Shown: positions 562 to 28,569 of the stretch, one piece after another | Layout of the letters: every line of letters begins with the position of its first letter | Numbering within the stretch: the stretch's first letter is position 1 | DNA from: Chrysomallon squamiferum | Taxonomy: Eukaryota; Animalia; Mollusca | Direction of reading: 5' to 3' | DNA length: 64,000 nucleotides | Assembly: GCA_012295275.1 (NCBI GenBank) | Contig: CM022679.1 | Span: 6,634,001 to 6,698,000, forward strand | Program-made: the position numbers and the translations under genes | Notes under the pieces: model-generated | The model's input: the letters and a program-made list of their open reading frames with translations, nothing else | The model's database searches: none | Told to the model about the DNA's origin: nothing

Positions 562-997
562 TTATATATCGATCCTGCGGATGTACAGCCCTTTGCTATC
601 TTTTCCAGCTTTCTCGCTCTCATCTTGAACTTTAACAGGGTCAATATTGTCATTAGTGACATTCATAAACCCAACGTAAGGAAGACCAAACTTGTACTGA
701 TTAATATCAGCTTGTGTGTTGTCTTCTAATTCATTGCCCATATCCATAACAGCGTTCTTGTTTTCATAGGACTTATCCAGCTGCGAAGTGGCTTTGAGAT
801 ATATGGAATTGCTCTTTCTGCTCGCGCTGCCATCATTGCTGCGTTTGACGCTTTGTTTCTTAAACTCTGAAGACGTTTCCTGTGGCTCTACTAGCTCTAC
901 TACTGTGGCAGGCTGAGTGACTACATACTTGCCGTCCATGTAAAAGTATGGGTTGTATGTACCTTCGGATAACTCGTCCATGTTCTTGATTCTACCA
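562..997 (-). CDS. Gene A terminal exon: cytoplasmic tail
   Basis: Acceptor tttccag, phase 2. GRIKNMDELSEGTYNPYFYMDGKY...GLYIRRIDI*; GC-richer than its flanks. Confidence 0.8.
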
Positions 998-2014
998 CTG
1001 GAAATCGTGACAAATTTTTATGTACATATCTGTGTATATGTGTTTGTACCTGTATTACTGTGCAAACGTTAATTAGATAAACATTTTAATTTTATAGGTT
1101 TTTTTCCACTGCTTTAGCAATTGTAATTCAACACTTATTTGATTAACAATATCTAGTTTGGGCTGTTTAGAAATATAAATGAATAACAGTCTTTGTAACA
1201 CAGTTTATATAGTTCAACAGCATTATCTTTTGCAAATAGTTTATAATATTGCCTAAACGTGTATAAAACCGAGTCATTCACATTTATTATTATAATGCTA
1301 TATTACTGAATAATATTAACATATGCGATAATACACATTCTATATGCTTTGATATAATTATGTAAATATATTACACTTATGTTATTTATATGAAGTATAT
1401 TATAACAATATTTATAAAGTTAACAATAACATGTTAATAAAGGCATGAGGATGTATCTAGAAATTCACTCTTATCTATGTGGTACATTACCTTTTGTCTT
1501 TAGGGGAAGATCTGCAAGATAAACAGGTTCCATTAGTTCGTTTTTAAATCTAATCAGGTATCTGATCTAAACTTTTTGCAGATGCCATTGTAAAATGATA
1601 TATCAGAGAATGTCATCAGTCTAGCTTTATGTTCATGATAAAGTAATTTTCATTCAAATCATATACCTCAGATAATATGATATCCTTCAGTTATATAAGC
1701 TACTTAAATTTTATTTGGAGAATCAAATATTTTTGTCTTTATGGTCAAGTCTACATTATATATGTATTAGATATGTTATTGTCATAAAAAATAACTTGTT
1801 CACTCAGTCAACATTACAGTCTTTTTACCTAAAAAAAATACTTCAAAATATATTCTACAAATCTGAGATAAATATCTTAAATGTTGTTTTTTTACAATTC
1901 TTTTACCCAAATGTTGAAAATGTTAATATTAATGGCCAATATTATTATAAAATGATAAAGGTCATAAAGAAATGCATAGAATACCAAAGAATAAACCACC
2001 TACACTTATTCACA

Positions 2015-2105
<91 letters not shown>

Positions 2106-5100
2106 AACAGACTGACCTAATTAACTGACTGTACAAATCAGTGCATTTATACACGTGCTGCATGGTTATTTCTACAGACTAAATTAGCAGATATGTGCAA
2201 GTGTTGATACACTAATATCTGAATTTAACTTTTCTGTATTTTTCAGGAATAATCTGACAAATAATAGGTATAATTAAAATGAAATATTAATGAATATGTA
2301 CTTTGAAAATATTTTTGAATGTCAAAGTAATCTTCAGAATATGCATTCCATTACAAATACATGTGTTGCATGATCAATTATATGTTTAATTTTTAAATAT
2401 TTTAGTTTTAATCAAAATTAATATATAAATAATATGAATGTATTAGTTTCTCGCATTTTCTATATTAACAGCTGTTTGATAGAGCAGTCTTAAAAATACA
2501 GTTATGAATAAAAGAAATTGTAAATATCAGCTTGTGTTTTTTTATTAAGTGTCCGATTCAAAAAAGGCCAATTAATTCTATATTTTTTATAAATGAATTT
2601 TACAAGTTATAAAGGTATATTATTGAAATTTTATTTGGTTGAAACAAATAAAAAGCAGAGAAATACTAACGTCCAAGCTGGTTCATGAAAATATCAAATG
2701 TGCAGTTATTAGTGTCTTAATAAAGACAAAAGTGCAGCTAATGTACCACATACATTCAGAGTGGGATTAATAGTTTCTATGTATCTACAGAGCTATATGT
2801 TAGTGTACTGATTTCTAAATACAGTGTTTTTGTAAGATATTCAAAATTAAACTATACATTATAAAAAAGTATTGATTAAATAAACCCAAGAATAATGTGC
2901 ACTAAAAAGCTCAAATTCTAAATACTGAATATAAAATCTACAAAACAAAAGTGTAATAAAACCCAAATCTTGTCATAAAAATGTACCTCTAACGGTATTA
3001 AGAAATAGCCTTAATACATTTGATATTTCTAAATTATTGTTTTGTTTAACCGTTAGCATATAATATAAAGCTCTTGAAGTTGGATGGAGCTTGACATTTT
3101 TTCTTTATTCTTATTATGTTTTACAGAGAAATGAAGAAATGTCCCAGATAAACTGTGGATAGTGCATGTAACCAGTGAATATATCAGTCTATCTGGGACT
3201 TTTCCACATGTCTCACTGTGAAATAACATTATAATCTGGGGTTTTTTGTTGTTGCTGTTGTTGGTGTTATTTTATTATCATCAGTTACTGATTGGTTGCT
3301 AGAAAACAATTTTTAAAAAGTTTGTAAGAAGCAAAATATATTTAGGTTATTCTTATATTTTATTGAAATAGTATAATAAGTATAAGCAGTGTTATATTTC
3401 AGAAAGAACATTTATTAGAAATTAACATTACATACATGCATACCTACATATATATTACACAAACATACACAGACACACACACCCAGCTTCTCAAATATAT
3501 CCATTAATCCACTGTATCATGCATACACAAATACACATGCATATAACACACAAGTGTGTATAAATAAATAGCCACGTATTCTCAGACAGAGAAATACACA
3601 TGCATGCATACATATTTACTTACCGACAACAGAAACAAGCAAGAACAATGAGTAGTAGAAAAAGGAAGAATGCCAGAGATCCACCAACAGCTCCACCTAT
3701 CACTGCAGACAGATTATCTGCTCTCTCTGGGTAAAACAAATAGAATTTATCACACACTAAGTTACCATATTTACAAGAATTCTCCATTTTTATTTATTTG
3801 CTGTTTTCCTTTGTTTACAAATATATATAAATGAATGGATATTTGCTGGAAGCAACATTGAAACATTTTATTATTTACTGATGAAATTAGAAAGAAACTT
3901 GTCACTGTCACTCTTATCTATAAGAAGTAATGGGTGTTTAATATGAGCTTTCCCTCAGACAGAAAAGAATCACCCTTGATACACCATTTATAGCTCAATT
4001 AGCAATTATTATAATTACTATTATTATTTCTTTTTATACACAGTTCATAACATTCCAACATTTTACAAACATAAAATTATATGTATTTGTAAATTATGAA
4101 TCAGATTTAATAGTGGTAATATTTTTTTGGAAAGTATAAAACATAAAACATGAACACAGGTCTACAACAGTTATGATGGCGAAGAATGTGTAAGGTACTT
4201 ATACTGTATTTTCATCACTAACTGAAAATCCAGTGAACATACCTGCATAATTCTCACAGTGATCACCACTGAAGCGTGTCTGACAAGTGCAGGTCATCCC
4301 ATCTTCAGGTCTGCTTTCATTCCACAAACAAGTGCCACCATTTTGACAGAAATCAGGGGACATTTCACAGGGAGCTACAGATAAAATTTAATGTAATCCT
4401 ACATCAACATAGCTTTATTTGAATGTAAATAATGTAGATGTTGTGTGTACATTTATTAAAACATTAGTTAAACAATGCTTACAAGAATAATAACTGATAA
4501 GATTACATTTGTATATATATATATAAAAAAAAAAAAAAATAAAACTATTATTATTATTTTAAGAAAACAAAGTGTATCTGGTGTCAGAAATGAGGTCTAG
4601 AATACCATGGAATCATGTTTAATAAAATAATTAAAAAATAACAGTGTTCTTATTTAGGATAGAAAGAAAAGAAGAATAAATAATTAAATGAGTCTTTAGA
4701 ATAAATAAAAATAAAATATACAAACAAATGCTACATATTCTAATAGTAAATATTTTAATAAAATATTTTCTTACAAACAAATGCTAAAATTTTGGAGTAA
4801 TACTGCAATATTTTGCATTTTTCCAGTAAACGTAATTAAAACTCAGTGTACTAGAATACAATAATGTATTATATGAAATTTTAAAAATTGTTTGTCAGTT
4901 GTTAGAAATAATTCCTGACATGAAATATGTCATCTGTTTATCTGCAGTATGCAGTAAACATAAAAAAGCTGAACAATTGTACTTACATAAACAGTGCTTT
5001 AACAATGATGCACCTGTTCCATTTGTTCGTCTGTTATTAGGACAGTTTTTACAAAATGTTTTTCCTGATTCATCCTGGTACTGATCAACAGGACATTCTT

Positions 5101-8100
5101 GACACTGCTGTTGCAGTTGCATTGTTCCAGCAGGGCATCTCACTATGGAAACAAATTGATGTAGTCATACAGCACAAATGTGTCTAACAAAATTTCAGTC
5201 ATTTGTCAGATATACATTTTATTAAATAATACATTGAAATATATTAATGAAATTTCACTAATTCATCAGATATAATTTTTATTAATATCAGATAAACATT
5301 TTACTAACTGATATAAAATAAAAGTTTGAATAATAGGTATAATTTTTACTAATATCAGATTTCAGGTTTACTAACTGATTTAAAATGCAAATATAATTAT
5401 TTCTAGCTGATGTCAGATATATTATTTAATTCAGTCAGTCAGTTGTAAATGTTTATTTTATTTATGTTAAATACAAGTTTTACTGAAATACAACATTTTC
5501 TAAAATTTATAAATAATTAAAACAAATTGATATTACATATAACGTCTGTGTGATTTTTTTTATAACAAAATTTAATTCATCTTAATTCCTATATACTTAT
5601 AAAAATTTAAAATAGATTCTTCCTTTCTAAGTTCAGACTTACATTTGCACTGAACTACTGAAGTTGCACCCGTGAATTGTGTGTACTTATACTGAGGACA
5701 TGGCTTGCATGAACTTGATTCAGTTTTATCCTGATAGTAATTAAGAGGACACTTCACACAGATTCCTGATTCTTCTTTGTATCCAGCTGGGCAGTGAGCT
5801 GCAGAAGACATAAAAATTATTGGTATTACAATTTTATAAGCCAGTAGTTTCAGTAATGCAAATTAATAGGTTTTTTTTCTTTCCCATTGTACTTGGAGGT
5901 TATATCACAGTGTATCCACCTACATTTTAAATCTACTCACGAAACTAATATTTAGAAATGGTTTTATTTATTTTTTTGTTGTAATAATAAACAGTTTAAA
6001 ATGTAATCTTTAATAATTATACTATTACTAATCAATTACTGCTTCTAACACTATGACATATTCTATTATTATCATAATTAGGATGAACTACCATTTGTAC
6101 CAGTATTTCTACAAATATTATACTACTACTATTGTATCTAAAAATAATAATAATAATAATAATGAAATTTTAATTATTTAATTTATAAGTAATGTCCTAA
6201 CTACATTTCTAAGATTCAGTGATGAACATTTTCCATGATATTAATTATGACCACTGTGTTATTAAATAAATGGAGTTTCATGCACTCACCAATACACTGA
6301 TCTCGTGAAATAGCACCAGAGATGGATGTGGCTGTGAACTGAGGACATTCCTTACATAACGTGGAATTTGGCTCATCCTGATACTGTCCAGCAGGACATT
6401 TTACACATGTTGCTTTCTGTTCCTTTGTTCCAGTGGGACAGTATACTGTAGAAGAAAACATTACAGTTAGTACATAGTATCATTTCTAAAATAAATAAAT
6501 ATTGTGAAGATTTCTTTAACATTTAATTTTAAAAACATAAATATGCTAATGTATGTACATTATAAGACACAGGTCATAGTTTATTATGGTGTTGTTTTGA
6601 GTATGAAAATTATGTTATCATGGACAAGATATTTAAGAGACATATCTAAAGGCTACAGTTATGTGAAATCAGTGAAATTAAATAAAAACAGATGAATTGT
6701 CTGTAATCAGTTAATAAACTTACAGTAACAATCCATGAGAGATTTGGATCCAACATTTTTTGTTGTTCGAAATTCTGGACAAGCCTTACAAACAGTAGTA
6801 CCAATCTCATCTTGAAACTGGCCTCGAGGACATTTGACACATTCCCCACGCTCTCCCTTTGTGCCAGCCAAACATTTTGCTGTAGTAATAAAATGAAGTA
6901 AAAGACACTGTGAATCATAAAGAAAAACATTGACATTATCACTGAAATAATTATTTAAAAAACCCCAAAACCTACAAGTGCTGACCAGGACAAAAGAAAG
7001 ATGTTATTACTCAGCCCATGTCAGACTACTTGAATGATGCATCTTCAACTAAAGATAGACCAGCCCAAACTGTTTTTATAGAAAACCTGCGTTGAGATGC
7101 TGTGTTGAATAGTAAAGAGATCAAAAGGCACAGAGAAAAAGATTGGTTCCTATAGCCTAGATTTAACTATTAAAAAACTTACGAAAACATTCATTCAGTG
7201 ATGTTGAACCAGTGGTGTTGGTAGTAGTGTACTCAGGACAAGTCTTACAAACTGTTGATCGTATTTCATCCTGGTACTGACCTACAGGACACAGTTCACA
7301 AGAATTTCCTTCATGTTTCATTCCTTTTGGACAGTTCCCTGATTTTATAATCAAATTAATAATAACTTAATTAAATGAAAATATTAATGAACAGCAGCAG
7401 CAACAACAACAGTAACAATAAGAAGAAAGCAACAACAAGTAGATCTACATCAATAATAATATTAAATAAATAAAGAAACAATATTCTGAAAGTTGTCAGT
7501 GATAAACAAAACCTATAACATATATATATATATATTTTACAGGTGAAATGATGATTAACTCACAGAAACACCCAGCTAGCGAAGGAGTTCCTTCAGCAAG
7601 AGTTGTTCTAAATGTAGGACACTGTTTACACTGTGTGGAGTTCATCTCATCTTGATACTGACCTACAGCACACTTCTCACACCTTCCAGACACTATCCTA
7701 GTACCCAGTGGACATTGTACTGGTTAAATAGACAGTAAACATTCTCAACATAAAAAAAAAAAAAAACACAAACAAGCAAATAAATAAATAAATAAACAAA
7801 ATAAATACTTCTTACAACTACCAGACACTGGCTTTTAACCCGATGGACACTGTACTGGTTAAAACAGACAAAATACATACATAGTTTATAAACTTTCTGT
7901 TTACTTTATAGATACAGCTACAAGGGCAAAACTTCATGCAGAAATAATTTAGTAGTTTGAGATGATTAACAGTTTATCAATTAAATGTTATGACAACTGA
8001 TGTTGCATATGTATTATTCAAAATAATGTTCACATTGTTATCAGTTAAACTGAATATCAAAATATATATATATATATGTCTATATAAAATGATTTAAATG

Positions 8101-11100
8101 AAACTACACTGTGCTACATTGTTCAGTATGAATGTAAACTTACAAATACATTGACTCTGTGATGTGCTGCCAGTTTGTTTTGTCACTTTGTTAGGCCCAC
8201 ATGATTTACACAAAGTTTTACCAGTTTCATCCTGGTACCAGCCTCTTGGACATTCTGTACAAGTTCCTGATTCTTGTTTTCTACCAACAGGGCAATGCAC
8301 TACAATTAAAAAGTGATCATTTCTGAGATAATTTCAAAATAATTCCTTTGATTTAAACTATTAAATTATTTAATATTGTATATGCATCCGTAACCCAAGA
8401 AGAAAGTATTAATAATGATAATGATTATGATTATGATGTTGATGATGATGATGATGATGATAACAATAGTTATAATAGCAATCAGAAATATTTATTTACA
8501 TCATTAATTATCCATTTGCTATAGTTTAAGGGTATTTTGCAGATATGCCTATCAAAAAAATGAAATGAAAATAAAAGGTAATATCATGTTTCTATCAGTA
8601 AAACACAGATTAAAAGATGTTACACATGGTAGAGTGTAAGGGCAATTGATTTTTATTTTAAACTATAAACTTACAGAAACACTGAGTAGAAGAAGTTGCT
8701 CCTTGTGAACTTGTGGTGTAATACTGTGGACAGCTTTTACATGTTTTTGCACCTACACCATCTTGATATTGACCAACTGGACACTGCTGGCATGTTCCAG
8801 AAACTGCTTTATACCCAGTAGGACATTGTACTGTAACATAATTATTTTATCCAGCTTATGATTTATTCAGATAAATGTAATTTCCTTCTCTTCATACATA
8901 TACTTAATAAAATAATACATAATACATTTTTGAATACTGTTATCTAAATTCTTAAAAGAGCTGGTTTCTGAAGTCCCTACTGAAGAATTACCTTTGAAAT
9001 GATCAAACAATAACTGAGGTGAGGGAGAATTTTACTGCATATTTGTTTTTATGACATAACCTATATAGTTCCTCAGTGAACAATAAAAAAATAAAAGTGA
9101 ATGATACATGCTACATTCTGTTGTTACATGACAATGTAAAAACAGTTAGAAAAAAATACCCATAATGTTAAATAAAATAAAATATTGATTCATGTTGAAA
9201 ATAGGTAGCAAAATAATTATTGTTTTGATTGGGGTGATTCTTAAAACAACTTATTTTAATTATAAATTCTTAACTTACAGAAGCACTGAGTAGAAGATGT
9301 TGCTCCTTGTGAATTTGTAGTGTAATACTGTGGACAGCTTTTACATGTATTAGCACCTATACCATCTTGATACTGACCAACTGGACACTGCTGACATGTT
9401 CCAGAAACTGCTTTATACCCAACTGGACATTGTACTACAAGAGAAACATTTACACATATTATTAAATAATTTATTATTTCATGATTAAGGCTTGAAAATT
9501 AGTATTCATTTGTAATAACATGTCATTCTAATACCTGTTTTAAATTATAAAGACACATGTTAAAATAAAAGTACAATAAAATGATAAATGTTTTGCTAAA
9601 CTGTCAAAAAGAATGGCTTGTTGTTTTGCAGAACTCATAGTACCACTAAAACTATTTTTGGGGGGTTTCATTTGTCTCTCAGATAAAAAAAAAAAAAAAT
9701 AATAATAAGTACAATAATGGTTATTGTGATGATGATGATGATGATGTTGATGAGAATTATTAAGAAAATATGTAAAAAAGTACTAATTCATCATAAACAA
9801 CACTGATGAGTGTAAACTATTTTGGAATTACCATGAAAATAATACATTCTTTGTTAATACTCTCAACTTACAGATACACTGAGTAGAAGATGTTGCTCCT
9901 TGTGAATTTGTAGTGTAATACTGTGGACAGCTTTTACATGTATTTGCACCTACACCATCTTGATACTGACCAACTGGACACTGCTGACATGTTCCAGAAA
10001 CTGCTTTATACCCAATGGGGCATTGTACTGTAATATTATAAAAATAATTACTGTCTATCTATCTATCTATCTGTATATATAATTTGTGTGTGTGTGTGAT
10101 GTTAAAATTTTAAAATAATAATGTATATGAGATTCTAGTATTTTAACAAAGATGCAGATATCCCACTGATTAGTAGAAAGATATTTTTTTATATATAACA
10201 GTACAAAATGAAAATAAAAGAAAGTTATAATTTTTTATTTTAAAGCAGGAAACTTACAGAAACACTGAATAGAAGATGTTGCTCCTTGTGAACTAGTAGT
10301 GTAATACTGTGGACAGCTTTTACATGTATTTGCACCTACACCATCCTGATACTGACCAACTGGACACTGCTGACATGTTCCAGAAACTTCTCTATAACCA
10401 GCAGGGCATCTTACTGCAGCAATCATAGAAATATTTGGAAATATTATTAAAATGTCTCTGTGTTGCACAATTTCTTCATGGAAATCATTATAAACATGTA
10501 AAAAATATGATAGTTAATCAAATAGCAATTGCAAATAAATAAATACAAATTACAACATGCTTATTGAAAAGTATTGGTTTGTGAAGAAAAATTTAAATGA
10601 ATTATTTATGCTAAATTTGCTCTAAGACAGGACTGTAATAACAATGAAAAAATTCTTATGGTGTTAAAAAAAATATCAAATGAAGATAACTTTTACTGTA
10701 TTTAAGCTAACAGAACATAGATAATAACATGTTGCTTTTCACTGATTGTTAATGCAACCATTTTTAGCTGATCTATCAACTTACAGAAACACTGAGCAGA
10801 AGATGTTGCTCCTTGTGAACTAGTAATGTAATACTGTGGACAGCTTTTACATGTATTTGCACCTACACCATCTTGATACTGACCAACTGGACACTGCTGA
10901 CATGTTCCAGAAACTTGTTTGTACCCAGCAGGACATTGCACTATAAAAATAATATAAATAAATAAATGATAAGTACACATCTTCTCCTTTCGTTATTTAT
11001 TCTTATTCATATTTTGTATAGAATGATTTTTTAATGAAACACTCAGTTTGGTTAATGTGATATCATATATATGATCAAGGACAATCCTGGTAAAATATAT

Positions 11101-17100: not shown

Positions 17101-19113
17101 ATGTTGATATGAGAGATGGAGGAATTGTGATGTCACCTACTCTTTAGTCTATCCTTACAGATTACCTGTAGTATCTTTTATACACACCTTCACATAGGAG
17201 GGTGCAATGTTTTGTAAACCATTCAAGAAGCACTGGCTGAATGCTATCTAGATAACAGATACACTGAGAAAGACTGATCCCATGAACTATGTATAGATTT
17301 TTGAAAAGCTTCTCATACTCAGGTTTTAATCAAATTTCTGTAGGTAACATGAAGTTTTCTGTTATTTCATCTTATTTCTTCATTATTGTTAAAATAGATG
17401 TTTTAAGATATAATCATCATTAACTCCACCTACTCAACATTATCATCAATAAAATCAATAAAAACAAGAATGTTTTTATTACTAAAACAAATATACTTAC
17501 AATAGCAATCAGTGAATGATGTTGATCCATTTTGATTTGTAGTATAATATTTCGGACACAAATTACAAGTCGTTGTATTTATTTGATCTTGGTAATATCC
17601 AACTGGACATTCTACACATGTGTCAGATACTACTCTTGTACCCTTTGGACATGTAACTGAAATACATAATGACATATTGAAACAGTCATACTTAGAACAG
17701 GACAAATACAGATATAAATATATATTTTGGATGTTTGAAAATCTACAAATATATTCTCGATGTATTATATTAACAAGGCATAGAGAAATATTTAAATTTA
17801 TAAACTCACGTGTACACTGGTTAATGGAAGAGGCTCCTAGTATGTTAGTTATGTGGAATTGTGGACAAGACTTGCAGCTTGTCTGTCCAGTCAAGTCTTG
17901 ATAGAAATTCTGTTGACACAGGACACATGATCCAGACACTTTATATTGACCAACTGGACATACAACTTGTACAGCTTCAAAATAAATAAATTAATAAGGT
18001 TGAACATATCAATAAAACATTATTTAATTTAATTTAATTTAAATAACGAAAATAATCTGTTTTATTTCCATATTATAAAATACATATTACAAATTTTGTT
18101 CTTTCCATAAATGAGGAAATGATCTATTTTTTATATTGAAGCCCATTTTAATTTGTGTGTTATATGCTAAACAGTGATCATTTCATTTCTTCAGACTAAC
18201 CCAAAATACCTACAGTATTATTTCCAAAGAAATCGTCAAAAATATTTATTACCTGTTAAGTAGTTGTTATCAAGTAAGTAAATCAGATTTTCTCACTAGA
18301 AATTATGCTTTTCTGAAAGTAATCATCTAAAATGTATATTCTCTGTTAACCAGCCGACATCATATGATAAGTAAACTAGATTTTATCAGTAAAAACAGGA
18401 TTTTAACTGGGGTTACAGATCACTTACAGACACACTGACTGGCTGAAAGTATAGAACTGACTGGATGTTTAATATACGTTAAATATGTGTTGAATATTTG
18501 ATACTTTGCTAATGGAATTATTAGTTCATTTATATCAAACTAAAATATGAATAGAACTTACAGAAACATTGTGTGGTTGAAATTGCTCCTGTTACATTAG
18601 TGGTCATGTTGGGTGGGCACGATTTACATGTTTTTGAACCAGTCTGATCTTGATATTCACCAAGTGGGCATGGAACACAAGTAAATGATTCTTCTTTCAT
18701 TCCAGCTGGACATTTCACTGTTAATAATCATGAAAACAATAATAATTAATATGCATTGTTATTACACTTTTAAATAATTAACAGAGAAGAAACTCCTGAA
18801 ATTTTGAGATAAACAGTAACTAAAATGAATATCAGCTCAATGACAACTGATAATTCACAAAATAACTGTTTTATGACTGAGGGATAAAGCTTATCCCACC
18901 ACTTCATCGATTAACCTTAACTTATTAAGGTAAACATTCACAAAATACTAACTGGAACGTTAAGCAGACCAGTCAATGTACCGAGAAGGATTAGTCCTAT
19001 GCTATGTGAAATGTTTCATATATCTATTGTCATCAAGTTTTAAAAAATCATTCTTTAAGCAACAAGAAATACATTCTTCTTCTTCTTCTTCATTTTCTTG
19101 TTATTATTATTTG

Positions 19114-19166
<53 letters not shown>

Positions 19167-21142
19167 TACTATTTAACAAAACAGGCATTTTAATGTATCT
19201 TTAAAAAAAAAATTTTTTTATGAAACAGGGTCGTAAACTTGTAAAGAAAAAACCTCAGATGTCGACACTATATTATCCTACTCAGCCAACCCCCCCTAAA
19301 AAAAACCCCGCTGTTTTCATTGTTTCTTATTTTATATTTTTGTTATATATATATATATATATATATTAAGAAAACTAAGCAACAACAACAAAAATATATA
19401 TATATATATATAATTGATTTCAACCAGTGATCGAAAATGTCCAATTGCTTAAATATATACATCATTTCATCAACTCAACCTAGAGCACCAATAAAACAAT
19501 TTCGCTAAAACAAATATACTTACAAAGGCAGTCAGAGAATGATGTTGATCCATTTTGACTTGTAGTATAATATAGAGGACAACTATTACACGTTGTTGTA
19601 TTTATTTGATCTTGGTAATATCCAACTGGACATTCTACACATGTGTCAGATGCTACTCTTGTACCCTTTGGACACGTAACTGAAATACATAATGACAAAT
19701 ATTTATTTTGCACTTGTTTCTATTTAATATATAAAGTATACCATATAGTAAATCCTCATAACGAAGAATTATATTTTGTTGAAAAGTCTCTCACTATCTT
19801 GATGGAGGTTTTCTGCTATTCACTAATCTACCAAGATAGGGCATTAGCCCAATATTACTTAATTGTAAAAGAATTTAAAAATAATTAAAGGCAAATGTAA
19901 TTTAACAAATTCTTTGAAATGGATTCTGGTTCATAAATAAATTGCAGTATGGTTGCTAATTATCAAACATGACAGACATTAACAGTAGGCTAAAAATAAT
20001 TGCGGTAAGTCTGCTAATAACTGTGGTTTTAGGAACCATTCATAATTTTTTATGTTTAAAGAAAGACAAATACAAAGGTAACCAACTTACGGTAACAATA
20101 GTTTATAGATGTGGCTCCTCTGATTGTAGTTTTTTATATTTTGGACATTTTGTGCATCCTGTCATTCCCGTTTTATCTTGGTAGAAACCGTATGCACATT
20201 CCACACATTTATCAAAATTTTCTGCCGTTCCAATGGGGCATGGCTCTGTAATAGTAATAATATTAATATTATAATAATTAGAAGAACAACAACGATAATA
20301 GTTAAATGGCAGAAAGAAAACGTATTCAGTATACTACTTTACAAAATCATTTCTAGAACAACTATTGAAATTTTATTCAGTATTTTTCATGACTAATGAG
20401 CATAAGTGCTGGTTGTCTGAAACTACTGTAAAGTTCTTACCACACATAGTATTGGTGAGGACATATCCAGCCTGCCGACATACTATGGTGATGTTTGTAT
20501 TTGAAACTGACTGAAAAATTAGTCCATATATGTCAATCTGAAAGAATAAAATTATTACACAGTAGATCAGTTTGCATTATATTTATCCATTACTATTCTG
20601 AAAGCATGAAAATAACACTGTAAAAACATTACATATCACATGTGGAGTTGTGAATAAATTAAATTAGTTACTTATAACATTCACTTTGAAATATGCTAAT
20701 CTGAAATAATCAAACAAATAAATAAAGTTAAAAAAACAACAAATTTATGAGTCAATTAAAAGACTGATTATAAAAAGAAACATTTAAATTTATTCCAGTG
20801 CTGATAATTCTTTTATTTATTTTCGTCTTTATCTTCTTCTTCTTATTATTTATTATTATTAAATTTTCATCATTATTATTATTATAATATATTTATTTAT
20901 TTTTGATGAGAGCAGATAAACATTTGCTTTCCTTTTATTTTCAACTAAACAGAATAATGTTCAGGAATAAATTATTGAAAAAATAAAAATCTTATTCTCA
21001 CATAGTTAGCTCATAGCAACTAAAAGAATCATACCAAAGTACTGAAAACTGTCTTGTCAGTAAAATAATCATTGAGAACATTTCTGGTAGATCTAATTTC
21101 TTCAGAACCTGTTGATGTGTTCAGCTTGAGTTCTTGTCTGCA

Positions 21143-21190
<48 letters not shown>

Positions 21191-23832
21191 GCAAATGAAG
21201 TACAGAAGGAAGTTTAAAAAAATAAGATTAATATCGTTTGATTAGATAGGGATCTTTTATATGCACATATTCATAAGCATGAAATTACATCTGAAATTCG
21301 TGATAAACTGATTGCCTAGCCTGAAATGGGAAACTAATGCAATGACTGGTTTGTGCTCTAACCCTGAGCTGCAATCTGCCCGTTATCACCAGTACCACCA
21401 TCACCACCACTACTAAAACTACTGCAGCTCTCACTACTAGTTATTGTTATCATAAAAAAATATTAATGACATCTTTTAAAACCAGCTAATAGTTATTTAA
21501 ATTTAATTTTGATGGATTAAAAAATAATAATAATAATAATAAAAAAAGAAAATAAATGAATAAATAAAGTAGAGAAAAGTAACACATACGGAATAGAGTT
21601 GAATATCAAATCCATTTTTATCGGAATCTGAGTCTGTCGGCGACGACGACCCGAAGACTGACATCCTGTTACAGCACCACTGACGTCCACGTTGTCGCAG
21701 ACCACATTGTTACATATTCCTTCCCACGTGCGATTGAGACGTTTCATCTGACGTCGTGCTTCAGCTCGTAGTGCGTCTGTCATCAACTCCGGCCTGTCAC
21801 ACGACTTTGCTGTAAACTGCATCGTGATTCTGTATGTCATTAAATCCAGCTGCGGAATCACTTCACCACCTAGCAAGAATCAGAACGATATCATGATAAT
21901 TACAATGTGTCTTTCTTTCAAACTTCTTGTTTTCTAGCTAGGTTGTATTAGAAAATACACTTGTAAGAATAGTAACAGTAGTAATTAAAACGAAGTATCA
22001 TACTTGGTAATGGAACACATTCTGCACTTCCCCGCTGAACAGTTTTCTGTCCTTGTGGACATTTTGTACAAAAACGTGACTGAGTGTTTTTGAAATAATT
22101 CATAGAACACTGTTTGCACTGAGAGTCCAGGTAATCGAACTCTTGTCCGGCAGGACACGGAGCTGTAATAATAACAGTGCAAAAACAACAGCAATAATAA
22201 TTATAGCCAGGACAGTTAGAGTAATTATAATAATTTCATTTTAAATTAAACAGTAACATAAAAAAAATATATACCAAATAATTGTATCATTACTGAAATA
22301 ATACACATTACATTATTATTTAGAAAATTACCATAAAACGTTTAGAACTGAGATACCAAGACAATTACAACATATAAATATTAACTTAATTCAATCAGAG
22401 TATTTATGTGATTGTCGAGGATAAATAAGTAACTAAACCTTGCATAACTGAAAATCTGTAAAGACTTCTAATTAATTTCTTTTTTAGAAAATGTTTGTTA
22501 ATATTTTTAAAATGAAAATTTTAACATGAATTAAAACAGATAAATTAAAATGTCAGGTAAGTGAAAACTTACGATGACAAAACTGTTTTCCTGTTGATCT
22601 GGTGGATTTGGTCAGAGTTCCAGAAGGACATGGGATACATACAGGTTGAGATATTTTATCCTGATACTTATCCAGCGCACAGTCAATACAGGTGTATGTT
22701 AAAGAATCCACACGTGTACCAGCCTGACACTGATCTATGAACAATTGCAACATCATTATTGTACTCAACAATAAAAACAACAACAGAAACAATAATACTA
22801 ACACGATCACCATAACAGCAACAAGATACCAAAATAGGGAAATTTAAATTATACAATAATAATAATACATTATATTAATACAATTTTCTTCTTATTATTA
22901 ATGTCGGAAAAATACTTATTTTTCTATCCTGTGCTTAAATATATATGCAAACACAGTAACAGACACACAAATTCTGAATATTTGTATAATGTGTATAGTG
23001 TATAAAGATACATACATATATAGTATATAAACAATACATACATATATACATACATACAAACAAACGTAAATATGTACATACCATCAGACAGATACATACA
23101 TACATATATATATATACATATAAATACGTACCTACAAACACAAACATACATAGATATATGCTTGTTTATTTGTGTTTATCTGTGTTTGTTTTTTATAAAA
23201 AAGAAAGATAAGTGATAACAAATTTTATATTGATATAAGTCATATAAACATCTTGCTATGACAACAGAAATTTATATAATAAAAAAGCCTACAATTGGAG
23301 AATGATTAATGAATACCTTTACTAAACTGAAGTACTTGTTTCAGCTTGGTCAGCAGTGGGAAGTTACCCTCATTACAGAACTGACCATTGAAGTCATCTT
23401 GAGAAATTTCGAATACCATAGCACCTCCTTAGATTCATATCCTTAATGTAATTAGCCTATTAAGAAAATAATAAACATATTTATTAATATACTGTTTTTA
23501 TGAGGTTGACATAACTGAAATTCATAAATGCACTAAATGTCTGAAAATTCATTATTCTATTTCGTTCATTGTGGCTATCATTAAACGAGGATGATTTTTT
23601 GTGAAATGTTGGATATGTTTAGAAAATATTTATTACCTTTATTTCAATACTTTTCTGTGTCTCGTATCCAACCCATTGCGCAGAGTCCCAGGCAAAAGAA
23701 GCATTTTGTTCTTGTTGAAATCCATACTGAAACTGGTATATTGGTTTCGATGTGCTGTCACTGCAAACCTGGAATGAATATAAGTAATGTTAACCTGTAT
23801 CTTACTACTTTTTTTCTGATTCTTTCTCGTTT

Positions 23833-23908
<76 letters not shown>

Positions 23909-24219
23909 TTCATTATCTTTCCGTCACTTACGTTTTCTCTCTCTCTCTTTCACATACTTACCTTATAGTATGGCAAATCATACGATGATGTGAATGGATC
24001 TCCTATTTTATAAAGCGTTTGACTCTTAAGCTGAAAAGCTTTCCCATAGAATGGTATTCCAAGAACAATTTTCTGAGCAGGCATCCCTTTAGACATCCAA
24101 TACCTCACTGCATAGTCCTGTTGCAAGGGAAACAATATTAAAGAAAACTTTAAAAATATAAACCAGATATGTATATACATATATGCATACATGCATATTA
24201 CAAGTATACATAATTTACT

Positions 24220-24287
<68 letters not shown>

Positions 24288-26850
24288 GAAAATGTACATT
24301 CTTACAGCATTTGTATAACTTTGTGGAGGTTGCTGATTAGATCTGGGATACAGTGGGCTGGGATGGTCAATTGTGCTGCTAAAGTTACCCTGGTAATCAT
24401 AAGCCATTATGTTCACAAAGTCGAAATCCCTTAAAACCAAAAAAAAAAAAAAAAAAATAATTTATTAACAAGAACAGTAACAACAAAAACAACAATAATA
24501 ATAATAATGTTAATAATGATGATGATAAAAAATAATAACAACAATATATATGGATGAATGACCAAATGACATAAGAAAAAGCAGGACAGAGATAGAAACT
24601 CAGTTAACTGACAAGTAGTATGTATATTAGATAATGTATCAATTTGCAATAATATATATATATATATATATAAATTGTTTTTAAACGTCCTCTAAAATAC
24701 TGTCTGATGTTAAATCCTTTCTTTTTATTTGCTAAAACTAAAGTATTCAGTATATTACAAGCTTTTATATAGTTTTAAAAACTTACCTTGTCAGGTTATT
24801 TACTTCATAAGAATTATCTATCGTCTGCTTGTTGCCTGAAACCGAGGCTGAAAGAATCAGTTTGCTCTTTGTCGTCTGACTGGCTGCTTCTGTATCAAAC
24901 TTCTGACGAAGTTGCTGTAAGTTTCATCACAAAATTTGAAAACGAGGTAAATTACATGAAAAAATTAGATGTCTTCTAGTTTCTACGTGATATGTGAAAG
25001 CAGGTAATTTATTTATAATTATAAAATAAGTTGTAAACATGAAAATAATTATTTGTACGATTTTGGTTTTTGGATGCATCTGCCTGAGACACTCAAAACA
25101 ATAAAAATACAAAGCAAGTAAGTAAGTAAATAAATAAGTAAAAAGTTAAGACAGTTGTAACAAAATTTAAATTCTTGTCAAACTTATATCGTTTTAATAT
25201 TATCCTGACAATTATTAGATATCACTCACAAACATTTTATGATGAAAACTATCAAATAGTTAATAAATAAATTAATAAAAAGACAAATTATAATTATTAG
25301 ATAAACTATTTTTGTAAGAAAGACGTTTGAAAAAAAAAGTCATTGTACTTTGTTAATGGCTTCTTTTATCTGTTTGAAGCAAAAATTATATTTTACAGTC
25401 ACCTTACCATTTTCAAAAAAAAAAAAAAACATTAAATTTTTATAATAGTCGTGGAGAATTTGGCTGGAATTAAAAATAGCTTCGCCCTTGAAATAAATAC
25501 ATAGATATTATGCATCATTTGATTTAATACAAAGCATTCCAATAACAATACAGTACAATAAAATAATAAATACTATAATAGAAACAGTTAGGTTTTGATA
25601 TGTTTATTTGAAAGTGTTATTTGGGGTTTTAATCTATTATTCCGTCATTCCAAGTTTCGCTTTGTTGACTGGAAAGCTACATTTGCTTAACATTTTTAAA
25701 TAAGAATCAAAAGTTCCATAACAAAATGAAAAAAAAAAAAAAATAATAATAATAATAATAATGATAAAAATAACGATAAACTACGACCAATATCGAGTGC
25801 GTACATGTTGGACCAGTTTTCTGTAGACGCTGTTTAGCGATAACAAAAAATGCTTTCCAATCGGATAATAAAATAACATATCGTTCCTTATTTCGAGCTG
25901 CCTGATGCATGTCAGAAAGTATCCTTGTACCTATATAAATACATTTTAAACATTATATCGAACGAAATATAGTATCTACTTTTTGAATTTAAAACCCCAA
26001 ACTTACTGAAACTAAGACACTGTATCGCTGATTGTCAGTAGAAATTCCGCCGTTTTCGCCAGGAAACTCCCAAACAATGTCCAGTCCGTCGAAGTTACGG
26101 TCACGGAGATATTTAATGACGTTGTCACAGAAAGCATTTATTCGTGTGTCGGTACTAACAACAGCAGAGAATGCAGCTGATGTTTGATTCCAGCCTCCAA
26201 CTGCCAAGAGAACTTTTAGTCCTGATGTCGAGAGTTTTAAATCTGTCACTTTTTTATAATTACCTGAAAAGTCAGTTTACTCTATTAGCAAAAGCATTTT
26301 TTAAATTTTACTTTTCTTGTTTTATTCTTATATTTATAAATATATATATATATATATATATAAAATAGCGCAGAGTACTGAAACCAGGTTTCATTCTAGA
26401 TTTTGTTACTGGATTTTTTGAGAGCTTTGAACTCTATTTTTAGTATATTTTATGTTTTTTTACAATGGTCAGGAATACGCAAACAATGATTTAAGTGAAT
26501 CCAACATATTCGATACATTGTTAATAACAAACAGATTTCGAGACAGCCATTTGGAATTTATTTTTCAATTAAGGCTTACTGGTGTTAGTAAAAATGCCTT
26601 TAGTAAAATTCTAAATCACAAAAAACAAGAGAAAATAAACTGATTGCTAAGGTTGCTAATAATCGTTATACTGCCAGTAATAAATTTCAACGTTGACCAT
26701 TTAGAAAAGTGGCTTTCTAAATAGTGGATTTGAAAGCGGTTTCAGTAATACTAATACTATTCGTGAAAAATCTCCGATCAAAATAATATAATTTCTGTAA
26801 AATTTAAACGTTAAAATAAAAAAGCCGACAAGTCCTTAAAATATAATATA

Positions 26851-26893
<43 letters not shown>

Positions 26894-27747
26894 GAAATAT
26901 GTTTTATGGTCTTCTTTTGAAAATTAGCACCTGATCTAAAACACCAGTGGGTTGGTTTCTTGTTCGTTTTTCCATCCCGCCCCCTTTTTCCAAAAAATGT
27001 TTTATTTTCTAATTAAAAAAAAAAATGTTTTAAACATAATTTTCAAATCCAAAGATGATATTTATTTACTACTGTTATCATAGAAACCATCAACACCGGC
27101 ATCACCTCTATGCTGCTATTTCTACCATCATTATTACTTATTTTATTGTTGTTGTTGTTATTATTATTACAGAGCAGTGCTCAACAGAAATCTTTTATAA
27201 ATATGATTTCTGTCAAGATAAAACAGAAACAAAGTATCAAGTATATAATTAGGGGAGTCACATCTATAAACAAGTGTTTTCGTAAGGTTGTTATCTCTAT
27301 ATCTTATCTGTTACGTAAACCATATATGACTTATATAACATAAAATTTGTTTTTGAATTTTGTTGTTATTATTTTGTTATTATATAATTTCACATCTATA
27401 AACAAGTGTTTTCGTAAGGTTGTTATTTTATCAGTTATTATTGACTTTATAACAAAACTGTTTTATTATTCTTTCCATAATGATCATCATCATCGTCATT
27501 ATTTAATTAAAAAAATGAACCACAAAGTTATGGTATTTGAGTAATAAGAAAAATGTTTACCGTTTAAACCGTCGTCGTTGGATTCTGTAGTTCCAAGCGA
27601 ATTGGTGTCAGGAAGGATTTTGGCGAACGCATACACAATGTGAGTACACAGGGATGGGTTGATGTTCTCAGGATTAAACTGCATGACCGCAGGGCGGTAC
27701 TGAGCCCAGTTGGCATAGTAACAAACACGTTTATAATCTGCGTTGAC

Positions 27748-27794
<47 letters not shown>

Positions 27795-27810
27795 TTACTT
27801 TTCACCAAAA

Positions 27811-27841
<31 letters not shown>

Positions 27842-28389
27842 AAATAAATAATAATAATAATAATAATAATAATAGTAATAATTTACTTTTCACCAAAATA
27901 AATAAATAAATAAAAGCATATAAATAAATTAAAAAAACAAAATTTTTGAAAGTTAAATTTATAAATAAAATAAATTTAAAAAATAAATTAAATTAAAGAT
28001 AATTAAATGAAAATAATAAATTAATTATTAATTAATCAAGGTAAATTATTTCTATTATTTAAATTAAAAAATAAAATAAATTATATACAATGTGAATTAA
28101 AATAGAAAATGAAAATAATTAAATAAATAAATAAAATAACAGACTTTTGTTACTTTAATTTTACTTTAAATATAATTATTTCATTGAAATGGAAAAACTT
28201 CCAATATTTTATCTACAAATACAGTACGTTCCTTACGTCTTTTTCATTAATGTAAATACAATTTCAGATATTATAAACATATTCGTTTATACAAACATAT
28301 ACACATAGTTACACATATATATTATCCTCTTTACAAACATACCAGCTATCTTCCTATTTATCTATTGTATAATTTTCACATGCATAACA

Positions 28390-28429
<40 letters not shown>

Positions 28430-28569
28430 CCACCTCCAACAGTAATAATAATAATAATAAAGACGTATACATATAAAAAGGTGCATCACCTAAATTTATT
28501 CTTACCAGTTCCTGAGAAAAGTAGTAACAGTGTAATGCCCACAAATCGATGATAACGAAAGGAAATCAT
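562..28569 (-). CDS. Gene A (spliced, 43 exons, ~2250 aa): membrane-anchored GH18 chitinase-like protein with a long stalk of ephrin-receptor-like (GCC2/GCC3, PF07699-type) repeats, a SEA-like domain, EGF, TM and cytoplasmic tail
   Basis: All exons have AG/GT borders and compatible phases from ATG 28569 to TAA 562-564. Summed coding length is 6753 nt (divisible by 3) after correcting a +1 indel at 23429 and a -1 indel at 20130-20135. Confidence 0.85.
1491..1511 (-). CDS. Gene A 21-nt cytoplasmic microexon (candidate)
   Basis: ttgcag|A TCT TCC CCT AAA GAC AAA AG|gtaatg, encoding SSPKDK; phase 2-2. Confidence 0.6.
2021..2102. repeat. (CT)n microsatellite
   Basis: Directly visible. Confidence 0.97.
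3624..3726 (-). CDS. Gene A transmembrane exon
   Basis: RADNLSAVIGGAVGGSLAFFLFLLLIVLACFCCR; phase 1 to 2. Confidence 0.88.
4243..4374 (-). CDS. Gene A juxtamembrane EGF-like exon
   Basis: PCEMSPDFCQNGGTCLWNESRPEDGMTCTCQTRFSGDHCENYA; six-Cys EGF, phase 1-1. Confidence 0.9.
4987..5142 (-). CDS. Gene A stalk repeat exon 26/26
   Basis: RCPAGTMQLQQQCQECPVDQYQDESG...; 156 nt. Confidence 0.9.
5643..5798 (-). CDS. Gene A stalk repeat exon 25/26
   Basis: HCPAGYKEESGICVKCPLNYYQDKTE...; 156 nt. Confidence 0.9.
6290..6445 (-). CDS. Gene A stalk repeat exon 24/26
   Basis: YCPTGTKEQKATCVKCPAGQYQDEPN...; 156 nt. Confidence 0.9.
6724..6879 (-). CDS. Gene A stalk repeat exon 23/26
   Basis: KCLAGTKGERGECVKCPRGQFQDEIGTTVCKACPEFRTT...; 156 nt. 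Confidence 0.88.
7183..7338 (-). CDS. Gene A stalk repeat exon 22/26
   Basis: NCPKGMKHEGNSCELCPVGQYQDEIR...; 156 nt. Confidence 0.9.
7564..7719 (-). CDS. Gene A stalk repeat exon 21/26
   Basis: QCPLGTRIVSGRCEKCAVGQYQDEMN...; 156 nt. Confidence 0.9.
7816..7854 (-). pseudogene. Partial duplicate of the 5' end of a repeat exon, with an in-frame stop
   Basis: Acceptor aaccag, then QCPSG*KPVSGS, then gtaaga. The acceptor context matches that of exon 7564-7719. Confidence 0.65.
8144..8299 (-). CDS. Gene A stalk repeat exon 20/26
   Basis: HCPVGRKQESGTCTECPRGWYQDETG...; 156 nt. Confidence 0.9.
8675..8830 (-). CDS. Gene A stalk repeat exon 19/26
   Basis: QCPTGYKAVSGTCQQCPVGQYQDGVGAKTC...; 156 nt. 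Confidence 0.9.
9279..9434 (-). CDS. Gene A stalk repeat exon 18/26
   Basis: QCPVGYKAVSGTCQQCPVGQYQDGIGANTC...; 156 nt. Confidence 0.9.
9872..10027 (-). CDS. Gene A stalk repeat exon 17/26
   Basis: QCPIGYKAVSGTCQQCPVGQYQDGVGANTC...; 156 nt. Confidence 0.9.
10258..10413 (-). CDS. Gene A stalk repeat exon 16/26
   Basis: RCPAGYREVSGTCQQCPVGQYQDGVG...; 156 nt. Confidence 0.9.
10785..10940 (-). CDS. Gene A stalk repeat exon 15/26
   Basis: QCPAGYKQVSGTCQQCPVGQYQDGVG...; 156 nt. Confidence 0.9.
11466..11621 (-). CDS. Gene A stalk repeat exon 14/26
   Basis: QCPIGYKAVSGTCQQCPAGQYQDGVG...; 156 nt. Confidence 0.9.
12405..12560 (-). CDS. Gene A stalk repeat exon 13/26
   Basis: KCPVGYKQVSATCQQCPVGQYQDVVG...; 156 nt. 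Confidence 0.9.
13017..13172 (-). CDS. Gene A stalk repeat exon 12/26
   Basis: QCPIGYKAVSGTCQQCPVGQYQDGVGANACKSCPQYYTT...; 156 nt. Confidence 0.88.
13374..13491 (-). pseudogene. Degenerate repeat exon, a copy of exon 10258-10413 with internal deletions
   Basis: Both splice sites are kept but the exon is 118 nt rather than 156, so frame is lost and Cys codons are deleted. Confidence 0.8.
13627..13664 (-). pseudogene. Truncated repeat-exon fragment (5' end only)
   Basis: Acceptor tgcag, then QCPAGMKQQLET*, fused to intronic sequence matching ~10650-10678. Confidence 0.7.
14280..14435 (-). CDS. Gene A stalk repeat exon 11/26
   Basis: QCPAGFMQIRQSCVECPLGQYQDEPG...; 156 nt. Confidence 0.9.
14744..14899 (-). 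CDS. Gene A stalk repeat exon 10/26
   Basis: RCPTGTKEVSGTCELCPAGQYQDEEG...; 156 nt. Confidence 0.9.
15288..15443 (-). CDS. Gene A stalk repeat exon 9/26
   Basis: HCPVGSKAQAGSCVACPVGQYQDIAG...; 156 nt. Confidence 0.9.
15690..15854 (-). CDS. Gene A stalk repeat exon 8/26
   Basis: VQVVCPAGQYEVSGSCVLCQQNFYQD...; 165 nt. Confidence 0.85.
16266..16421 (-). CDS. Gene A stalk repeat exon 7/26
   Basis: QCPRGYKEQTGTCVLCPVGQYQDEIGSNYCKTCPAGKTT...; 156 nt. Confidence 0.9.
16691..16846 (-). CDS. Gene A stalk repeat exon 6/26
   Basis: KCPAGMKEESFTCVPCPLGEYQDQIG...; 156 nt. Confidence 0.9.
17501..17656 (-). CDS. Gene A stalk repeat exon 5/26
   Basis: TCPKGTRVVSDTCVECPVGYYQDQ...; 156 nt. Confidence 0.9.
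17810..17974 (-). CDS. Gene A stalk repeat exon 4/26
   Basis: VQVVCPVGQYKVSGSCVLCQQNFYQDLTG...; 165 nt (156 if the inner AG at 17966 is used). Confidence 0.85.
18562..18717 (-). CDS. Gene A stalk repeat exon 3/26
   Basis: KCPAGMKEESFTCVPCPLGEYQDQTG...; 156 nt. Confidence 0.9.
19524..19679 (-). CDS. Gene A stalk repeat exon 2/26
   Basis: TCPKGTRVASDTCVECPVGYYQDQINTTTCNSCP...; 156 nt, phase 1-1. Confidence 0.9.
20091..20245 (-). CDS. Gene A stalk repeat exon 1/26 (carries a -1 frameshift in an A6 run)
   Basis: PCPIGTAENFDKCVECAYGFYQDKTGMTGCTKCPKYK/TTIRGATSINYCY; 155 nt instead of 156. Confidence 0.82.
20441..20537 (-). CDS. Gene A exon 13: end of SEA-like region and half Cys repeat
   Basis: IDIYGLIFQSVSNTNITIVCRQAGYVLTNTMC; phase 0 to 1. 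Confidence 0.78.
21035..21137 (-). CDS. Gene A exon 12: SEA-like region
   Basis: QELKLNTSTGSEEIRSTRNVLNDYFTDKTVFSTL; phase 2 to 0 fits both neighbours. Confidence 0.75.
21590..21869 (-). CDS. Gene A exon 11: SEA-like domain with furin-type RRRR site
   Basis: GEVIPQLDLMTYRITMQFTAKSCD...GCQSSGRRRRQTQIPIKMDLIFNSI; phase 1 to 2. The SEA-like label is inference. Confidence 0.8.
22004..22162 (-). CDS. Gene A exon 10: ephrin-receptor-like repeat
   Basis: PCPAGQEFDYLDSQCKQCSMNYFKNTQSRFCTKCPQGQKTVQRGSAECVPLP; 159 nt, phase 1-1. Confidence 0.85.
22573..22734 (-). CDS. Gene A exon 9: ephrin-receptor-like Cys-rich repeat
   Basis: DQCQAGTRVDSLTYTCIDCALDKYQDKISQPVCIPCPSGTLTKSTRSTGKQFCH; 162 nt, phase 1-1. 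Confidence 0.88.
23317..23456 (-). CDS. Gene A exon 8: GH18 C-terminus (carries a +1 frameshift)
   Basis: ANYIKDMNL[+A]GGAMVFEISQDDFNGQFCNEGNFPLLTKLKQVL; 140 nt, whereas 139 is needed for phase 0 to 1. Confidence 0.88.
23637..23768 (-). CDS. Gene A exon 7: GH18 insertion domain
   Basis: VCSDSTSKPIY...FAWDSAQWVGYETQKSIEIK (QWVGY motif). Confidence 0.9.
23836..23904. repeat. (CT)n microsatellite
   Basis: Directly visible. Confidence 0.95.
23962..24117 (-). CDS. Gene A exon 6: GH18
   Basis: DYAVRYWMSKGMPAQKIVLGIPFYGKAFQL...LPYYK. Confidence 0.92.
24221..24286. repeat. (CT)n microsatellite
   Basis: Directly visible. Confidence 0.95.
24306..24429 (-). CDS. Gene A exon 5: GH18
   Basis: DFDFVNIMAYDYQGNF...HPSPLY (MxYDxxG motif); phase 2 to 0. 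Confidence 0.9.
24787..24914 (-). CDS. Gene A exon 4: GH18
   Basis: QLRQKFDTEAASQTTKSKLILSASVSGNKQTIDNSYEVNNLT; phase 0 to 2. Confidence 0.9.
26007..26263 (-). CDS. Gene A exon 3: GH18 with catalytic motif region
   Basis: KVLLAVGGWN...YLRDRNFDGLDIVWEFPG; phase 1 to 0. Confidence 0.95.
26376..26747. mobile_element. Possible MITE in a gene A intron
   Basis: Terminal inverted repeat TACTGAAACC...GGTTTCAGTA, extending imperfectly inward; ~370 bp, no convincing coding content. Confidence 0.35.
26852..26890. repeat. (TG)n microsatellite
   Basis: Directly visible. Confidence 0.95.
27561..27746 (-). CDS. Gene A exon 2: GH18 N-terminus
   Basis: VNADYKRVCYYANWAQYRPAVMQFNPENINPSLCTHIVYAFAKI..., the classic animal chitinase start. 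Confidence 0.95.
28506..28569 (-). CDS. Gene A exon 1: signal peptide
   Basis: MISFRYHRFVGITLLLLFSGT, donor gtaag, phase 1. Continues as VNA/DYKRVCYY. An acceptor at 28585 implies an upstream UTR exon. Confidence 0.8.

Follow-up and report, generated by a model that had tools for sequence, protein, structure and literature searches.

A chitinase-like head on a 26-repeat stalk: a predicted type I membrane protein of Chrysomallon squamiferum and its short-stalked gastropod relatives

Closest described systems and the Chrysomallon locus

The chitinase-like lectins CHI3L1/YKL-40, Ym1 and insect IDGF are secreted with GH18 as their single domain and have typically lost its catalytic Glu, and PF07699 (ephrin-receptor-like) repeats are combined with EGF domains in Uninflatable, SVEP1 and SCUBE, the first of which also has a transmembrane (TM) anchor. 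A GH18 protein of the cell surface is known in insect CHT7, which according to the available text on TcCHT7 (PMC5891080) is anchored by its N-terminus, carries two active GH18 domains together with CBM14, is released into the chitin matrix by an unknown route and is proposed to organise that matrix and not to digest it. MUC1, Notch2 and GPR126 are described, in the available text of PMC6954182, as cut within one loop of a SEA domain whose halves stay associated until parted, it is proposed, by force. Here we present a locus of Chrysomallon squamiferum lying in a window of 64,000 nucleotides (the whole stretch of DNA analysed; contig CM022679.1, positions 6,634,001 to 6,698,000), an AT-rich sequence of about 28% GC. 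Its 43 minus-strand exons are supported by the sequence as one gene, whose product would be a type I membrane protein headed by a GH18 domain. We read this protein as a tether for chitin on a chitin-secreting epithelium, cut by furin and thereby releasable, a reading to which we give a probability of roughly 45%.

As with CHT7, this would be a surface GH18 protein released into a chitin matrix, but the anchor is C-terminal, the single GH18 is degraded, no CBM14 was matched, and the head is followed by a stalk of repeats and a putative cut site in a SEA-like domain. The arrangement of insect group III chitinases (N-terminal TM, two GH18 domains, C-terminal CBM14) is therefore not that of the window protein, and the Bombus Cht7 domains fall outside its clade. 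A ferredoxin-like domain, a cleavage loop between strands 2 and 3 and a predicted two-chain form are shared with GPR126/ADGRG6, Notch and MUC1; in contrast to these, the SEA-like domain stands at the far end of the stalk, some 1,400 residues away from the membrane and directly beneath the head, and 7TM, GAIN, LNR and mucin regions are lacking. While the GH18 fold with a damaged DxDxE motif recalls the chitinase-like lectins, the window protein keeps the Glu, loses the second Asp and is predicted to be membrane-anchored. Unlike Uninflatable, SVEP1 and SCUBE it carries GH18, and CUB, Sushi, HYR, vWA and pentraxin domains were found neither in the 19 open reading frames (ORFs) of the gene scanned against Pfam nor in whole-protein scans of five relatives; the model leaves no room for them.

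No description of this domain architecture was found among the papers listed in a literature search that covered titles and abstract openings and few subscription journals. The main text of a survey of molluscan glycoside hydrolases (PMC7560691) does not mention 'ephrin', and in the available portions of two further papers neither 'transmembrane' (PMC1945033) nor 'chitinase' and 'ephrin' (PMC7142155) appear. The gastropod family is apparently undescribed; its component parts are known, and its short form is present in databases under automatic names. A first-pass annotation of the window, made from the sequence alone, had not recognised the architecture as a described one. That agrees with the literature search, but the architecture is not unique, since relatives with a one-repeat stalk exist in the databases, and the 26-repeat stalk alone is special.

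One gene model and its gastropod relatives

The exon chain runs on the minus strand from an ATG at 28569 to a stop at 564-562, with all 42 introns bounded by GT-AG and compatible in phase, and after two one-base corrections yields a spliced product of 6,735 nt and 2,244 aa with a single stop. The order from N- to C-terminus is a signal-like N-terminus, GH18, two ephrin-receptor-like repeats, a SEA-like domain, 26 further repeats, EGF, a TM helix and a tail of 152 aa. Exon 1 (28506..28569) carries the ATG and a signal-peptide-like N-terminus (aa 1-21), as judged from its sequence and from alignment with the N-termini of relatives. GH18 (aa ~24-392) occupies exons 2-8 (27746-27561, 26263-26007, 24914-24787, 24429-24306, 24117-23962, 23768-23637 and 23456-23317; span 23317..27746), supported by splice sites, phases and PF00704 on exons 2-7, where Glyco_hydro_18 was matched on all six ORFs scanned, four of them above the curated cut-off. 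Exons 9 and 10 (22734-22573 and 22162-22004; span 22004..22734) each encode a Cys-rich PF07699 repeat, and both repeats are present in relatives. The SEA-like, ferredoxin-fold domain lies on exons 11-13 (21869-21590, 21137-21035 and 20537-20441; span 20441..21869), identified from the family alignment, a homologue model and fold matches.

The stalk begins with exon 14 (20091..20245; 155 nt) and continues through exons 15-39 (4987..19679), which hold repeats 2-26 and are 156 nt each, phase 1-1, with six Cys. The latter start at 19679, 18717, 17965, 17656, 16846, 16421, 15845, 15443, 14899, 14435, 13172, 12560 and 11621 (exons 15-27) and at 10940, 10413, 10027, 9434, 8830, 8299, 7719, 7338, 6879, 6445, 5798 and 5142 (exons 28-39). 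Ephrin_rec_like was matched on all seven repeat ORFs scanned. Exon 40 (4243..4374) encodes the EGF-like domain (PF00008, E 4e-7) and exon 41 (3624..3726) a TM helix with a Cys cluster at its end, placed by hydropathy and by a near-identical helix in relatives; 19-residue windows above 1.6 start only at aa 2063-2079. The tail, with nine Tyr in total and no known signalling domain at the Pfam cut-off, comprises a 21-nt micro-exon (exon 42, 1491..1511), placed by its AG/GT borders and phase fit alone, and exon 43 (562..997). The phase-consistent chain, the coordinates and the counts of repeats and residues given in the first-pass annotation were right.

Correction of a single +1 indel had been thought sufficient; in fact two breaks were found. 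The first is an extra base at 23429..23430 in exon 8, the last GH18 exon, and uncorrected the frame stops at codon 370, ahead of the last barrel strand. The second is a missing base in an A-run near 20135, which leaves exon 14 one base shorter than the other 25 stalk repeats; with phase 1-1, skipping of exon 14 would also keep the frame and leave 25 repeats. In the neighbouring conserved plus-strand gene a comparable frameshift occurs at an A-run (~53515-53525, near 53520), in an EGF exon through which four relatives read, and for this reason both breaks are likely to be assembly errors. The earlier statement that no stop, second signal peptide or CBM14 exon separates GH18 from the repeats depends on two corrections; CBM14 was matched on none of the 19 ORFs, and homology spans the join.

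That homology was seen as one high-scoring segment pair (HSP) between the window model and an abalone RefSeq protein (aa 7-717 versus 2-700, 35% identity, E 8e-147), and since a single HSP crosses the GH18-repeat join, the join is not due to chance. A search with exon 3 returned 34 matches, the best a partial Gigantopelta aegis model at 73%, and included one abalone RefSeq protein with both PF00704 and PF07699; the C-terminal half of the abalone RefSeq protein found two further abalone proteins among 12 matches. A profile of the linker domain was then searched against 1.84 billion representative sequences. Of its 14 matches, five were full-length members of the family, found in abalones, Patella, Babylonia and Plakobranchus. 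A partial Aplysia model made a sixth, seven more were single-exon fragments without a name, and a Streptococcus Rib-repeat protein was dropped as spurious. An unnamed ENA-derived ORF on a 152,893-bp contig has 54% identity to exon 11 and ends at the matching intron position.

With cluster members included, the domain order of the window protein recurs in ten gene models from eight species (limpet, abalones, Babylonia, Plakobranchus and Aplysia). They are KAK6171442.1 of the limpet Patella caerulea; XP_046352701.2, XP_071106318.1, XP_067670751.1 and XP_046572897.1 of Haliotis clade A; XP_046572841.1 and XP_067673562.1 of Haliotis clade B; XP_076449434.1 of Babylonia areolata; GFO39145.1 of Plakobranchus ocellatus; and the partial XP_035827210.1 of Aplysia californica. 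In all ten, repeats, the linker and a TM helix accompany GH18 or at least its C-terminal half, and the relatives' GH18 domains score 190-285 bits with Pfam over the whole domain. Two partial Gigantopelta aegis models (XP_041379019.1 and XP_041379020.1) end within GH18 and represent that part alone, at 69-72% identity to the window GH18. No named match from outside gastropods was found in the family searches, the sensitivity of which is limited.

The window protein shares with this family the order GH18, repeats, SEA-like domain, repeat, EGF-like domain, TM and tail, with a TM helix and Cys cluster of identical type, at 29-35% identity over a window model with the stalk collapsed. It differs in size: relatives with the N-terminus present are 761-951 aa long, and between linker and EGF-like domain nine of the ten have one repeat and the Plakobranchus model none, compared with 26 in the window. 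D147V is likewise confined to the window, and the relatives bear automatic names only. In a GH18 tree of 32 rows (midpoint root, outgroups taken from the exon 3 matches) the window sequence grouped with Gigantopelta (100/100) inside a branch holding all the fused proteins (96/97), separate from ordinary molluscan, annelid and arthropod chitinases. Two separate genes for GH18 and the repeats were ruled out by the join-spanning HSP, by the order found in single proteins of relatives in four gastropod lineages and by the nesting of the window GH18 in a clade of fused proteins with that order. Both the single gene and the type I topology with a GH18 head proposed in the first-pass annotation are supported by these comparisons.

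Active site, linker, stalk and the rest of the window

The catalytic motif reads D-G-L-D-I-V-W-E (26067..26090, minus strand). Within D145-I-V147-W-E149 the second Asp of DxDxE is replaced by Val147 (26075-26073) and Glu149 is kept, while all 11 relatives covering the column have Asp; the intact DxDxE of active GH18 chitinases is therefore missing. In mouse AMCase, according to the available text of PMC11182645, the catalytic Glu and the substrate are both brought into position by the corresponding Asp, and the lining of subsites -3, -1, +1 and +2 includes four Trp. With columns matched by motif, W35 and W108 of these Trp are kept, and Phe364 (23411..23413, minus strand) and Phe228 replace those of subsites -1 and +2; each of these changes needs two bases, which makes sequencing errors unlikely. 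R279K is a further change, and Y222 and D223 are kept. The head called a chitinase in the first-pass annotation thus has the PF00704 fold but is not a canonical chitinase, and the degraded site had gone unremarked. As predicted from these residues, chitin hydrolysis is likely to be weak or absent, and the head is likely to be a chitin binder more than a cutter.

Among relatives, DxDxE is intact in the limpet, in abalone clade A and in both Gigantopelta models, and the catalytic Glu is lost in four of nine (abalone clade B, Babylonia and Plakobranchus), from which it follows that the family tolerates an inactive head. The two abalone paralogues show opposite features, clade A keeping DxDxE without a furin site and clade B keeping the furin site with the Glu lost; both H. 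rubra paralogues are listed on a 1.31-Mb contig.

The 160-aa linker also contains a feature absent from the first-pass annotation, a furin-type RxxR site in the predicted loop between beta2 and beta3 of the SEA-like fold. In the window this site is RRRR (aa 577-580; 21637..21648, minus strand), which alignment and model place between predicted strands 64-70 and 86-98. The linker of a Haliotis rubra homologue was modelled from 15 sequences with pLDDT 84.7 as strand-helix-strand-loop-strand-helix-strand, the ferredoxin-like beta-alpha-beta-beta-alpha-beta fold, in which strands 2 and 3 are joined by a loop of low confidence, and fold matches were to ferredoxin folds throughout. The fold was unchanged in a model of the whole limpet protein, in which a long helix lay at the TM. 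In a fold search the SEA domain of Gpr126 ranked first (Z 8.7, root-mean-square deviation (rmsd) 3.2, 109 aligned) and a mucin-16-like SEA domain second (Z 7.7, rmsd 6.4, 115 aligned), at 7-8% sequence identity and so indicating fold similarity only; segments of TMPRSS6 and the IA-2 ectodomain ranked lower. With SEA in the first two ranks and unrelated folds at Z 7.3 and below, the linker is likely but not proven to be a SEA-like domain. Pfam SEA was not matched in the window ORFs or the scanned relatives, and a family profile of the domain matched five of 67 fetched proteins, all of them family members and none of Uninflatable/SVEP1/SCUBE type; SEA-like exons of the neighbouring gene scored 3.2 and -0.1 bits on it.

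The RxxR loop motif is present in the window and in six of the ten relatives, the four abalone clade A proteins being without it. All four invariant Cys of the domain precede the basic site, so that no disulfide would be expected across the cut, and the conserved furin-type site in a SEA-like domain leads to the prediction that the head is releasable.

With respect to the stalk, all 26 repeats have six Cys. The 16 distinct repeats have a mean identity of 47%, and DNA identity is 87-98% among eight adjacent repeats and within three pairs, a pattern that points to growth by old and recent rounds of local exon duplication. Over seven disjoint close pairs there were 33.5 synonymous and 37.5 non-synonymous differences, with a ratio of non-synonymous to synonymous proportions (pN/pS) of 0.32 (binomial p 2e-6), and purifying selection is thus evident even among the youngest copies. 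Duplication in assembly was rejected as a source of the stalk: best partners are 58-98% identical with differences enriched at synonymous sites, and long matches between copies are mostly the exon with short flanks. Capture from the neighbouring Uninflatable-like gene was not supported either, its three repeats being 36-38% identical to stalk repeats, compared with 47% within the stalk, and different in length; a repeat tree, built without the relatives' repeats, did not resolve. A decayed partial copy of a stalk exon lies outside the model at about 13300-13470, with 72-95% identity to parts of exons 27, 28, 30-32 and 25. From TNFR-type modules, which measure about 2.5-3 nm per repeat, a rod of about 65-80 nm would be estimated.

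The neighbouring gene is large, lies head to head with the chitinase-like gene on the plus strand (41155-63800) and runs off the window. It encodes C-type lectin, three CUB, Sushi, EGF and HYR domains followed by PF07699 repeats, and we take it to be of Uninflatable/SVEP1 type. A 473-bp segment occurs twice with 100% identity (49996-50468 and 50669-51141) on either side of a 200-N gap, so that a Sushi exon is held twice, and is likely an artefact of gap joining. The best match of this gene among the fetched proteins is from Haliotis asinina and is listed on a 79.6-Mb contig, as are both H. asinina members of the present family, a weak hint of old linkage. CpG counts per 2 kb are 16-43 at about 18000-41000 and mostly 0-10 at 2000-18000 (the stalk exons) and 42000-64000 (the neighbouring gene body), which would fit gene-body methylation over the stalk part only. 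Two GC-richer intergenic ORFs without a Pfam match (32195-32412 and 39248-39780) are possibly exons of a small third gene.

Possible functions and their meaning for gastropod chitin

If the protein is a tether, its GH18 head would bind chitin, cut it poorly and be held far from the membrane by 26 disulfide-bonded repeats, the length of the stalk setting how far out the head reaches. A furin-type protease would cut the SEA-like loop during secretion, after which the head, with its two repeats and half of the SEA-like domain, would stay attached non-covalently. A pull on the chitin-bound head, or turnover of the matrix, could then unzip the two SEA halves and leave the head in the matrix. The site of action would be a chitin-secreting epithelium. 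Chitinases are expressed in radula tissue of a limpet and a freshwater snail (PMC9263180 and PMC5995198), neither of which, in the text available, ties them to the present family.

Several observations weigh against this reading. The tissue is a guess. The closest relatives, from Gigantopelta, keep DxDxE, D147V as a one-base change could itself be an error, and not only hydrolysis but also binding may suffer from the missing Trp at -1 and +2. The clade A abalone proteins combine an intact DxDxE with the lack of a furin site, so neither release nor inactivity is universal in the family. The fold was predicted for an abalone homologue and not for the spliced domain of the window, its best Z of 8.7 stands only 1-1.6 above unrelated ferredoxin folds, and Foldseek with the linker model gave nothing at E <= 0.001, only weak ferredoxin-fold matches. 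Nor did long-stalked relatives emerge: in a weak search that scored 7,987 candidates, GH18 was present in none of 19 matches of 1,414-4,035 aa, and two metagenome scans gave no confirmed locus. A stalk of 26 repeats was seen in the window alone, weak evidence that it is unique.

Of the alternatives, a glycan sensor of immune or symbiont-handling cells survives best, if at perhaps less than half the weight of the tether. Its lectin-like head would reach past the glycocalyx to microbial or fungal surfaces rich in GlcNAc, and signalling through the tail tyrosines would follow from shedding or clustering. Long stalks are typical of capture receptors, and the loss of the catalytic Glu in four of nine relatives is consistent with a lectin. 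Oyster GH18 proteins are assigned immune roles in the available text of PMC1945033. A DY[LIV]DY tail motif is found in seven of ten relatives and partly kept in the window, but it is absent in the limpet and abalone clade B and incomplete here, and the tail lacks a known signalling domain.

An active membrane chitinase, trimming new chitin at a set distance before release into the matrix in the manner of insect group III CHT7, is somewhat less likely again. Glu149 is kept, and DxDxE is intact in the limpet, clade A and Gigantopelta sequences; TcCHT7, a membrane-bound protein that is released in vivo, organises the new cuticle (PMC5891080, available text), and both chitinases and chitin synthases are expressed in the limpet radula (PMC9263180, available text). 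Against this stands the combination of D147V, W364F and W228F in the window copy, both Trp changes being unlikely errors. We consider just as doubtful a bolder proposal, in which the protein is a gastropod chitin mechanoreceptor. There the GH18 head would sit on a furin-cut, SEA-like force switch, the tail tyrosine motif would signal when chitin is pulled, and stalk length, one repeat in most snails and 26 here, would be tuned by exon duplication as a ruler for a thick chitin layer.

A recently broken gene is a little less probable still. Were the extra base in exon 8 real, a fragment of 369 aa lacking the last barrel strand would be made and the stalk left untranslated; the raw stop, the second break, the accumulated active-site changes and the lack of a nearby acceptor restoring the frame, on reading the sequence of the exon 8 region, agree with this. 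However, exons 15-39, all 25 of which lie downstream of the two breaks, are open throughout and have canonical splice sites and six Cys each, the youngest repeat copies are under purifying selection, and the neighbouring conserved gene has a similar break, at a rate of one in about 4.3 kb of matched coding sequence as against two in 6.7 kb here, a comparison resting on three events. If the breaks are real, the window copy is a decayed member and the family finding stands. Least probable is a variable stalk, with the phase 1-1 repeat exons used as cassettes and most transcripts holding fewer than 26 repeats, at the extreme a single one as in the relatives: every stalk exon could be skipped in frame, but splice sites are ordinary throughout, introns measure 153-1,107 nt, and a rough duplex test gave no shared docking site of Dscam type (two of 25 and one of 25 introns at z < -2).

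Little is known of the ways in which mollusc epithelia hold, shape and release the chitin scaffolds of their radula, shell and sclerites. As a conserved candidate for this role the family, present in limpets, abalones, a caenogastropod and heterobranchs, offers a predicted cut-and-release site and natural active and inactive versions. The abalone, limpet and Aplysia copies are short enough for expression, and the 26-fold longer stalk of the Chrysomallon protein bears on whether the reach of such a head is tuned to the thickness of the matrix.

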